DNA of 64,000 nt from Octopus vulgaris. Taxonomy: Eukaryota. Below are positions 1,032 to 32,308 of the stretch, piece by piece. The notes under the pieces are model-generated. The model did not search any database and was not told where the DNA came from. It saw only the letters and a program-made list of their open reading frames with translations. The stretch is from positions 98,394,001 through 98,458,000 of the forward strand of contig OX597816.1 of the NCBI GenBank assembly GCA_951406725.2, in the 5' to 3' direction. The position numbers and the translations under genes are program-made. The stretch's first letter is position 1. Each line of letters starts with the position of its first letter.

Positions 1032-1109
1032 GCGGCTGAAGAAGGCCACAGACATACATTATGCATTGTTATAAATCTGTCTAATAAAGGCCCGAAACAT
1101 ATGTACCGC
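1032..1109 (+). ncRNA. Type I hammerhead ribozyme, minimal palindromic helix III
   Basis: GCGG-CUGAAGA-A-GGCC...GGCC-C-GAAA-C-AUAU-GUA/CCGC; stem I GCGG:CCGC, stem II GGCC:GGCC plus ACAGA:UCUGU; predicted cut after 1105. Confidence 0.78.
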
Positions 1110-1174: not shown

Positions 1175-1620
1175 ATTCAATTTCCTAGCATTCACTTTGT
1201 CGTTCACTTTACTGTGTCAAACACATTTATGCATGTACCTAATGGGACGATACTTGCCAGCGTTGCTGAAATAATATAAGGAGTAGGGTTTCATAAATTA
1301 TATATTTTGACAATGATTTTCTTTTAAAGGCGCAATGAAAAAATTGTATTATATGCGATACAATATGCATTACAACATTCTCTTTGTTCATTTATTCATA
1401 TATACATACATTCCTTTCTCCAATCATACATATATACATATATGTTTGCATACATGGATACATAGATATATACCATACATAATGCACACGCACAAACATA
1501 CGAATTTCTCCTGGCTGATGACTAAAGTTGTACCTATATAAATTTTACGACGGCTGTTTCGGGAGAAAATGATACTTTATTATGTGTGTGTGTGTGTGTG
1601 TGTATAGATGGACAGAAAGT

Positions 1621-1655
<35 letters not shown>

Positions 1656-1835
1656 AAAGGGCTTAGTAAAATAAATTACTTCGCCGCATACTGAACTCAT
1701 TAGAAATAGCAGCTAAAAAACTTTTTAAAGCTATTTCTAATACTTAAAGAAAATCTCTCTCATATATAGCGTTTGCTTAATTTAACTCACAAAAGTTTGG
1801 GGTAAGGACATTAAAAATCAAATGCTAAGGTTATT

Positions 1836-1887
1836 TGAGTACGTACGTTTCAAGATTAGTCAAAACAACATTTCTCTCTTCAGCTCA
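1836..1887 (-). ncRNA. Type I hammerhead ribozyme copy 1
   Basis: Minus strand: UGAG-CUGAAGA-GAGA...UCUU-GAAA-C-GUAC-GUA/CUCA. Confidence 0.82.
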
Positions 1888-2378
1888 TAAATTCTTGGTT
1901 TGGATTTGGAAACACTGAAAGTAAGAACATACCCTTTCGAAGATCCGCTCTTAACTAACAGTGCCAGCAAACCCAAATAAGCAAGTGAATCATTTCTGTT
2001 CTCCCTTTCCACCAGCGTGGGTTAAAATCATCAAACGCTATGCTTATTTCGGTAAAATCCGAAGCAATAATTAGAGGGAGATTAATTATAATTTCAACAA
2101 TTGAGGGTAAAATTAATTAATTATTAATCAATTTCACCAAGTGTTCAGTATGCAAAGGGACCATTTAAGGCGAATTCAAATTATTACATTATATAAAAGG
2201 GCTTAGTAAAATAAATTACTTCGCCGCATACTGAACTCATTAGAAATAGCAGCTAAAAAAACTTTTTTTAAAGCTATTTCTAATACTTAAAGAAAATCTC
2301 TCTCATATATAGCGTTTCCTTAATTTAACTCACAAAAGTTTGGGGTAAGGACATTAAAAATCAAATGCTAAGGTTATT

Positions 2379-2430
2379 TGAGTACGTACGTTTCAAGATT
2401 AGTCAAAACAACATTTCTCTCTTCAGCTCA
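2379..2430 (-). ncRNA. Type I hammerhead ribozyme copy 2
   Basis: Same motif, 543 nt from copy 1. Confidence 0.82.
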
Positions 2431-2434
2431 TAAA

Positions 2435-2486
2435 TGAGCTGAAGAGAGAAATGTTGTTTTGACTAATCTTGAAACGTACGTACTCA
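2435..2486 (+). ncRNA. Type I hammerhead ribozyme copy 3
   Basis: TGAG CTGAAGA GAGA...TCTT GAAA C GTAC GTA CTCA; predicted cut after 2482. Confidence 0.82.
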
Positions 2487-2978
2487 AATAACCTTAGCAT
2501 TTGATTTTTAATGTCCTTACCCCCAAACTTTTGTGAGTTAAATTAAGCAAACGCTATATATGAGAGAGATTTTCTTTAAGTATTAGAAATAGCTTTAAAA
2601 AAGTTTTTTAGCTGCTATTTCTAATGAGTTCAGTATGCGGCGAAGTAATTTATTTTACTAAGCCCTTTTATATAATGTAATAATTTGAATTCGCCTTAAA
2701 TGGTCCCTTTGCATACTGAACACTTGGTGAAATTGATTAATAATTAATTAATTTTACCCTCAATTGTTGAAATTATAATTAATCTCCCTCTAATTATTGC
2801 TTCGGATTTTACCGAAATAAGCATAGCGTTTGATGATTTTAACCCACGCTGGTGGAAAGGGGAGAACAGAAATGATTCACTTGCTTATTTGGGTTTGCTG
2901 GCACTGTTAGTTAAGAGCGGATCTTCGAAAGGGTATGTTCTTACTTTCAGTGTTTCCAAATCCAAACCAAGGAATTTA

Positions 2979-3030
2979 TGAGCTGAAGAGAGAAATGCTG
3001 TTTTGACTAATCTTGAAACGTACGTACTCA
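2979..3030 (+). ncRNA. Type I hammerhead ribozyme copy 4
   Basis: Same motif; predicted cut after 3026, 544 nt from copy 3. Confidence 0.82.
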
Positions 3031-3311
3031 AATAACCTTAGCATTTGATTTTTAATGTCCTTACCCCCAAACTTTTGTGAGTTAAATTAAGCAAACGCTA
3101 TATATGAGAGAGATTTTCTTTAAGTATTAGAAATAGCTTTAAAAAAGTTTTTTAGCTGCTATTTCTAATGAGTTCAGTATGCGGCGAAGTAATTTATTTT
3201 ACTAAGCCCTTTTATATAATGTAATAATTTGAATTCGCCTTAAATGGTCCCTTTGCATACTGAACACTTGGTGAAATTGATTAATAATTAATTAATTTTA
3301 CCCTCAATTGT

Positions 3312-3366
<55 letters not shown>

Positions 3367-3796
3367 ATATATATACTGAGAGAGAGAGAGAACGAGATAG
3401 GTAGACAGACAAACAAAGAGACAGTCAGGTAGATAGATAGGTAAACAGATAGATATAGATATAGATTATAGAGATAATTATTGTTTCGATGAGTGAGCAT
3501 CTGAAAATATGTGGAAACGGCAGTTTTAAGATTCTAAAAATACCCAAAAGTGATCCAAAGTACCAGAATGGAATTAACTAGCAATGGAATTAAGTAGGTT
3601 TTATATTTTATAAACTTAAACTAATCGTATACTATACATTTACAAACGCTTTAAAAATCTTGATGACAAAATATTGTCTCAGGTTAACCAAATCAGTTTA
3701 CCACTGATTACTATCGTTTGTAACGTCTTTATTGCTATTGCTGAAAGAAGTCGTAAAATTGAAATAAGTTCATTTAACTAACCAACATACGGCACA

Positions 3797-3837
<41 letters not shown>

Positions 3838-4905
3838 ACACATCCAAGGCTGTTTGACAGATTCTATTTTCTTCGACTGGCTAACACGACAACTGAACAA
3901 AAATATCGTTAGCTTCACAACTTTTGGATCTCTCATATATGTCAACCATCGTAGAGAAACACCTCTTTCTTTTTCATTTCTTCTTACGTCTTTCTTTCTG
4001 TCTTCTTTTTTCTCTCTAACCAAGCTTCCAAAAATCGCTCGCACACATATATACACATGCACATATAGACATAGATTTATACACACATAAATACATTCGA
4101 AATAAAGTATATCTCAAAAACTCCCAAAACATCCTCTTTCCAAAGCCGAAGGAAACAGACCGAATTCCATATATTTTCAAGTATCACACATATATATCAA
4201 AGTTATGATTTTTGTATAAATATACCACTAATGATGCATCTCTCAAAAGAAATGAGAGCGCAAATTAAATAATCTTTATCCAAATCATGACTATTTTTAC
4301 TTAATATATAAAATCTGTACAGCACTTCATTCAAACAATCTAATGTGCATATCTATGCATGCACCCATCCATTAGTCCATACATATATGCGTACACATAC
4401 ACATTGACACATTTATGCATATATATTACACCTCGTGTGTATAGGTAGTTGTACGACTGTTAGTGTTTAGTTTAAAGTACTACGTAATCATAATCTTGTC
4501 TGGTTTATGCTATTAGTGTAGTGAGTCGTATTACAATTATGATGTTCAGACTAAGCGTAAGAGCAATTACGATAATCACATGTTAGTATCATTTGTTCCC
4601 ACCAACGTTTCCCATTTTGATTCGTTGGGACGCTACATTGAATAATCCGAGAGCAGCTGTTCAAAGTGCATATAGACGCTTAACAACAATAGATAATTGG
4701 TGGGCACTATATCCCTTTATGAACAAATTTCTCTTGAGAATTTTTCTCTGTAATATAATGCAAAATAGTGGATCCCGAAGATTTGCTGTGGTTAAGAGTC
4801 CAATTGTCCTTGCAACATCCAGTATATAGTTCCAAACAAACATACGCGATCGGGAATCGTACGTAGGAACAAGGGATATAAACTTTTGTTTTATGTAATT
4901 CTATA

Positions 4906-23937: not shown

Positions 23938-24862
<925 letters not shown>

Positions 24863-24878
24863 AATTTATTATTATTAA

Positions 24879-31360: not shown

Positions 31361-32308
<948 letters not shown>

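Follow-up and report, generated by a model that had tools for sequence, protein, structure and literature searches.

A candidate non-coding hammerhead retrozyme family of Octopus vulgaris with the two-armed insertion layout of Penelope-like elements

The available data suggest that an inverted array at positions 1648-3313 of a stretch of contig OX597816.1 from Octopus vulgaris (64,000 nucleotides, hereafter the window) is a non-autonomous, non-coding element of the non-LTR retrozyme type, its mobilisation probably being due to a Penelope-like protein (RT + GIY-YIG) that acts in trans. This reading is built on the way in which the copies end. In 53 of 55 two-armed insertions, one outer end lies at a unit site termed A and the other at a second site, B; A/A or B/B outer ends occur in 0/55. 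If the arms chose their sites independently at equal odds, A+B in 53/53 would have a probability of 0.5^53 = 1e-16. The layout is recognisable as the inverted-arm-plus-tail signature of Penelope-like elements (PLEs), with a tail of about 97 nt instead of 30-40 nt.

At the window locus, a 544-nt unit is present in two arms that are 99% alike, the units being 99-100% alike. The first-pass annotation had described a non-coding unit of about 543 nt, repeated about 1.45 times on the minus and 1.6 times on the plus strand between (TA)n tracts on both outer sides, and this description was borne out: the span contains no ORF of at least 100 aa, and its head-to-tail units carry no RT + GIY-YIG ORF of the kind that marks an autonomous PLE. 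Likewise, the four motifs composed of TGAG, CTGAAGA, stem II, GAAAC, GTAC, GTA and CTCA, with predicted cuts between the last two that lie 544 (plus strand) and 543 nt (minus strand) apart, were found again. Of the extent first given, 1648-3312, the left end stands and the right end is corrected by one position. The features are as follows.

1621-1647, no strand: left remnant of the (TA)n target, the (TA)n tract spanning 1621-1655
1648-2431, minus strand: A-type arm without tail; about 1.45 units long, with the 3' end at unit position 243 (TTTTATATAAT) and a 5' truncation at the junction
2432-2434, no strand: head-to-head junction, unit position 541 joined to unit position 1, with 2-nt microhomology
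2434-3313, plus strand: B-type arm carrying the tail; about 1.6 units long, with the 3' end at unit position 336
2435-2486, plus strand: type I hammerhead motif, predicted cut after 2482, without the upstream distal strand of helix I
2979-3030, plus strand: type I hammerhead motif, predicted cut after 3026
2379-2430, minus strand: type I hammerhead motif, predicted cut after 2383
1836-1887, minus strand: type I hammerhead motif, predicted cut after 1840
2483-3026, plus strand: cut-to-cut monomer of 544 nt, highly structured by predicted fold
3155-3309, plus strand: conserved structured core with both start sites A and B; further copies at 2611-2765 (plus) and 2099-2253 (minus)
3221-3313, plus strand: "tail", the stretch between start sites A and B, at the right end only
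2888-2966, plus strand: long rod-like hairpin upstream of the hammerhead (approximate coordinates, from alignment columns 420-516)
3314-3375, no strand: right remnant of the (TA)n target, the whole (TA)n tract on this side

Both ends of the locus, looked at for a target-site duplication, lie inside (TA)n. GC content is 0.31 over 2001-4000, and the element has no LTR-type organisation. The arms do meet at 2432-2433, as first described, but the "2-nt loop" proposed there is a microhomology junction, with an overlap of 2 nt, of two independently 5'-truncated arms. Since inner ends at other loci are spread evenly over the unit, the near-perfect centre of the palindrome is a coincidence of this locus. 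That near-perfect symmetry, together with the small homopolymer differences between the two arms, is what could speak for a satellite or foldback DNA repeat, or for fold-back errors of assembly. Such an origin is nevertheless very improbable and largely refuted: the flanks are unique and non-mirrored, fixed unequal ends recur at more than 50 dispersed loci, junctions vary, and the repeat is also present in independent sequencing runs. Elsewhere in the window, the structured core survives as an old, degenerate relic at 31511-31720, part of it matched by nhmmer (E 0.009). A 214-aa frame lies at 24221-24865 (minus strand); we take it to resemble the C-terminal end of a non-LTR retrotransposon, with a zinc knuckle and a restriction-like endonuclease.

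The element is present in many copies, as the idea of a young element predicted. In the animal's own genome (2.8 Gb), 235 matches of up to 100% identity were found (the best 40 of 1063 candidates being scored), as well as 251 exact matches to a 26-nt unit pattern. The hammerhead pattern gave 410 exact matches, and the same pattern read backwards gave 0. Judged from these sequences, the hammerhead element is a recently active, dispersed multi-copy family. In the fetched loci, 128 cut-to-cut units of 543-565 nt were collected; unit length is 543-547 nt, with subfamilies of 553-565 nt at 83-85% identity. Part of the unit was also found in 20 of the 24 sequencing runs listed, always as contigs, the RNA origin of these runs being a guess; contigs of four of these runs were compared with the unit, and joints in them that go back 544 nt are compatible with tandem DNA as well as with circles. 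One contig, of run X1, starts exactly at 3027, one base past the predicted cut. It was rejected as evidence of cleavage because position 3026 is polymorphic (GTA/GTT), which breaks assembly graphs, and a contig of run X15 starts there too.

The end rule was established on 77 parsed regions of this family, the window included; the regions fetched were 39 chosen by full-unit match, 37 by hammerhead pattern and one of a sister family. Of the 77, 54 hold the 55 two-armed head-to-head insertions, and 23 are one-armed, masked or otherwise irregular. The 55 adjacent pairs comprise 49 simple A+B pairs (sister locus L137 among them) and six others; the count of 53/55 is made without L137 and with L035, a B+A locus whose short A arm was added back by hand. 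Four of the six have A and B outer ends with internal rearrangements (L044, L068, L106 and L119, the last showing an inner A/A adjacency inside a duplicated block), and L104 and L133 have one non-canonical end each. Both arms of L119 carry the same chimeric block, made of an A end, (TA)n, about 11 nt that match the right flank, and a jump into the unit. At L103 and L126, the arms lie tail-to-tail, 300-450 nt apart.

A ends peak at unit position 243 (range 234-257) and B ends at 340/344 (332-348). The distance between A and B, which corresponds to the tail, is about 97-101 nt and is outside the 30-40 nt of PLEs. It had been noticed before that the arms stop at different phases of the unit; this is correct, and what had been missed is that the two phases are fixed and complementary across the family, in the manner of a PLE tail. 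Three traits of PLE-mobilised sequences are found here: an inverted, head-to-head, 5'-truncated arm (55 insertions in 77 regions), a one-sided tail (53/55) and a (TA)n microsatellite target, 124 of 128 family 3' ends running into a TA repeat within 4 nt. Sites A and B are both TA-rich, which suggests microhomology with the target. Given these constant, complementary phases, the back-to-back layout is read as an insertion product, and not as the design for self-processing from either strand that had been proposed. A transcript reading through the locus would fold 1648-2431 onto about 2434-3220 and would bury all four motifs; judging from the sequence, the two inner motifs lack the upstream distal strand of helix I.

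Arm comparisons bear on the template. The substitution distance is 0.26% within arms, 0.25% between the arms of a locus (140/55262 sites) and 2.3% between loci, for pairs of at least 91% identity and with L119 left out. The two arms of one locus are thus read as sharing a template. The partner arm is strictly the closest in only 22/39 loci because near-identical subfamily members exist. Among 41 of the 49 simple pairs (identity of at least 90%), inner (5') ends are spread evenly over the unit and junction overlaps are mostly 0-5 nt. The predicted cut site is crossed by 67/82 arms, and a single inner end (1/82) lies within 5 nt of it. An enrichment of 5' ends at the cut site was accordingly rejected, and a cleaved linear monomer is not the template. 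Arm lengths within pairs are not correlated (rho -0.14, p 0.40).

In the same set of 41 pairs, 32 are nested and nine are not (six clearly, three marginally), so that neither arm is contained in the other. For instance, L117 has an A arm without 247-340 and a B arm without 371-86; across pairs, either arm can be the longer one. These nine pairs argue against a simple fold-back, in which the target-primed cDNA of the same class of element would fold back and prime itself, for example on an antisense template, an endonuclease then resolving the hairpin at a second site. We consider this route unlikely, even though it would accommodate the 32 nested pairs, the single haplotype shared by the arms of a locus and the several junctions found in self-complementary stretches, and self-priming was proposed for Penelope (PMC3846280). 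Arm sharing, crossing of the cut site and non-nesting taken together fit priming from both ends of the break on an uncleaved multimer or circle.

Each motif has the catalytic core CUGANGA, GAAA and NUH with helices I-III of a type I hammerhead. Helix III consists of 2 bp and a palindromic tetraloop. The earlier description as a type I hammerhead with palindromic helix III holds; "minimal" does not strictly apply, helix I having a distal AAGG/CCUU stem. The Rfam cmscan proposed in the first-pass annotation matched no hammerhead family, be it over 1200-3800 (E<=1) or over 2960-3060 (E<=10), and returned only miRNA-hairpin and snoRNA noise. The G10.1-C11.1 pair at the base of helix II is not kept (G.U in the window copy; U.U, A.A, A-U and C.U elsewhere); a U.U base is found in an axolotl motif that cleaves (PMC7229834). 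As a monomer, the hammerhead fold is predicted at -0.9 kcal/mol versus -6.6 for the MFE, while the two helix III halves form a duplex of -11.8 kcal/mol, which by these calculations would be compatible with cleavage as a dimer. The absent G10.1-C11.1 pair and the marginal monomer fold would count against ribozyme activity. Eight of nine predicted Xenopus retrozymes failed to cleave in vitro (bioRxiv 10.64898/2026.07.22.740005).

The cut-to-cut monomer at 2483-3026 has an MFE of -152.7 kcal/mol (z -6.95; 0/100 shuffles as stable). In an alignment of 12 related units, two-sided changes occur at 9 of 151 consensus pairs, which is modest evidence as the units are kin. An 11-bp stem closes the loop that contains site A, and a 15-bp hairpin precedes site B. 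The core is common to both sister families at about 70%, and in the stem an A-U pair is exchanged for G-C. The sister family has a unit of about 580-590 nt (1764 candidates) and a third group a 559-nt unit in L199 (863 pattern matches). Across the three families, hammerheads covary in helices I, II and III: helix I is UGAG/CUCA, CCCAUG/CAUGGG or AUUAUA/UAUAAU and helix II AGA/UCU, GAA/UUC or GGA/UCC, the AAU/UAA internal loop of helix II being kept. In the third family, U3-A8 stands in place of C3-G8, a variant known in PLE motifs (PMC4209133). Sister-family loci picked by their B region have an inverted A partner in 29/60, A/A being invisible in such a set; no terminal B/B was found among those 60.

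Arrays can be long. The longest, L054, has at least 12.8 identical units, and 23 of 27 arms of at least 1600 nt show no recurrent minority substitution. The other four long arms carry roughly periodic variants, with periods of 2, 2, 3 and 4 units (L045, L052, L063 and L065); these are expected from oligomeric circles and also from duplication at the DNA level. Three one-armed arrays of C24 that lie within 115 kb (L058, L059 and L066) have an identical 5' junction and flank and differ in unit number; they are likely to have arisen by segmental duplication, with a change in array length at the level of DNA. One may therefore ask whether the hammerheads are mere passengers of a PLE-mobilised element, the templates being linear read-through multimers and the arrays growing by DNA-level duplication. 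Inner ends that ignore the cut site, the weak monomer fold and the capacity of unequal crossing-over to yield periodic variants all agree with this idea, as does the fact that PAc inserts uncleaved RNA and that its hammerhead needs protein (PMC11167929). It is improbable in our opinion: the core is invariant, the stems covary across families at 70-85% identity, including the change from C3-G8 to U3-A8, and the L054 array needs a generator since 5' truncation only shortens.

In favour of a retrozyme, the sequence combines tandem type I motifs, absence of coding capacity, low GC, dispersion and a self-paired monomer. The proposal that a young non-autonomous element was copied from a circular or multimeric RNA is supported by the copy number and by the end and template counts. 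How might such an RNA be inserted? The RNA, a circle or an uncleaved multimer, would be bound through its structured core. The PLE protein, probably as a dimer, would open a (TA)n tract on both strands. Reverse transcription would then start from each DNA end on the same RNA, at A from one end and at B from the other, with the aid of TA-rich microhomology. The two cDNAs would run through the hammerhead sites, stop at random and join by microhomology, which would yield an inverted duplication with a one-sided tail. The probable role of the hammerheads is to process multimeric transcripts into monomers or oligomers; these would circularise, new multimers arising by rolling-circle copying. Within the PLE-mobilisation model, a circular template appears reasonably probable. 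A further step, which we put forward tentatively, is to regard these elements as circular parasites of PLEs, the two halves of the complex priming at A and B from opposite ends of the (TA)n break on the same circular or oligomeric-circular RNA, copied in a rolling-circle manner. If true, obligately asymmetric A/B priming alone would explain the tandems, the inverted pLTRs and the one-sided tail of PLEs, and the covarying core of about 170 nt found in at least three families would be a candidate portable recognition signal. The start sites of PAc show no strand preference in vitro (PMC11167929), which counts against the PLE-mobilisation model, as do the one-armed or irregular regions, the long tail and the lack of a Rfam hammerhead match described above.

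A search for the partner found no autonomous PLE with the core at 30 GIY-YIG (PF01541) loci (30 of 150 scored, out of 6136 candidates), either by blastn or with a three-family nhmmer profile. Two core matches among the GIY-YIG loci (L077, L096) were rejected as PLE ends, being separate sister-family insertions, and PLE fragments near third-family cores (L181, L187) were rejected as partners, also as separate insertions. The genome contains many GIY-YIG PLE copies, including one abundant family with intact 781-aa frames (RVT_1 + GIY-YIG) and a Zn-finger-like linker, which is classed from its sequence as Neptune-like by the definition in PMC8557442. Its target is (TA)n, and 3 of the 9 3' ends listed show a tail of about 35 nt; the family was rejected as partner, its 3' end being unrelated to the core and its tail short. 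Neptune-like copies at L076, L198 (C16:20.83 Mb) and relatives contain a tentative U3-A8 hammerhead-like motif in the pLTR. At L096 (reverse strand, about 2720-2980), the A arm of a third-family retrozyme is nested in (TA)n at a Neptune-like 3' end, in the same orientation.

The window contains a second, unrelated hammerhead element at 540-1140, two-armed in (TA)n, with motifs at 1036-1105 (plus strand) and 719-650 (minus strand). It belongs to a very young family (1787 candidates, the best 40 scored being 99-100% identical). Inverted partners listed end at query position 240-253 in 11/13 cases and at 321 in none, and the tail is about 70-80 nt. Three copies have in common more than 1 kb of non-coding sequence on the upstream side, where 1.4 kb gave no match to a PLE protein. 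An exact 35-nt copy of its junction sequence lies at 3835-3869.

The origin of tandem and inverted structures of PLEs and of their tail is called open (PMC8557442, PMC11167929), and PLE mobilisation of animal retrozymes has so far been based on co-occurrence and pLTR similarity (bioRxiv 10.64898/2026.07.22.740005, PMC7229834). In the present family, dozens of nearly identical copies made of retrozyme-like units bear the insertion signature of PLEs. What the family adds is a set of rules that can be counted, namely A+B pairing, non-nested arms and periodic variants, together with a small and defined RNA as substrate for work in vitro. In the open literature searched, we found no cephalopod description, no two-armed retrozyme arrays, no tail of about 97 nt and no counted A+B rule.

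Metazoan non-LTR retrozymes (Cervera & de la Pena, 2020, PMC7229834; Li et al., 2026) are, like the element described here, non-coding AT-rich tandem units. They share with it a type I hammerhead with a short palindromic helix III, a highly self-paired monomer and coexistence with PLEs. Their circRNAs are known, with PLEs as candidate drivers (PMC7229834), and retrozymes have been related to pLTRs and read as non-autonomous PLEs (bioRxiv 10.64898/2026.07.22.740005). The unit here measures 544-565 nt, which is larger than the range in PMC7229834 (150-450 bp) and inside that of bioRxiv 10.64898/2026.07.22.740005 (51-972 bp). The word "inverted" does not occur in the main text of PMC7229834, and the consulted portion of bioRxiv 10.64898/2026.07.22.740005 contains no two-armed or tail architecture.

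PLE insertions have an inverted pLTR and a one-sided tail of 30-40 nt (PMC3846280, PMC8557442). EN+ PLEs share with the present family the head-to-head inverted 5'-truncated arm, the extension at one end, partial tandems and (TA)n targeting (PMC3846280, PMC8557442), as well as a hammerhead upstream of two internal start sites (PMC11167929). In PAc, the tail is delimited by two adjacent internal sites at which RT starts; both strands are cleaved and then extended, the substrate is uncleaved RNA, and the protein is predicted to be a dimer (PMC11167929). Unlike EN+ PLEs, the element here has no ORF, its tail is about 97 instead of 30-40 nt, and both arms can be multimers. Moreover, A+B pairing is near-obligate here, whereas the PLE papers use the words "optionally" or "often at only one end" (PMC3846280, PMC8557442). 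Inverted Penelope copies give rise to siRNAs (PMC3681739). Chlamys MRC1 is likewise a non-autonomous PLE derivative with multicopy head-to-tail insertions; Chlamys elements differ in that they are algal, have 3' ends resembling those of an autonomous family and mostly lack hammerheads (PMC8557442).

Finally, twin priming of L1 also involves both target ends priming on one RNA, with cDNAs joined head-to-head by microhomology. In that process, the internal position at which the second primer anneals varies, and there is mostly no overlap between the two parts. In the octopus family, by contrast, this position is fixed and each arm duplicates the other.
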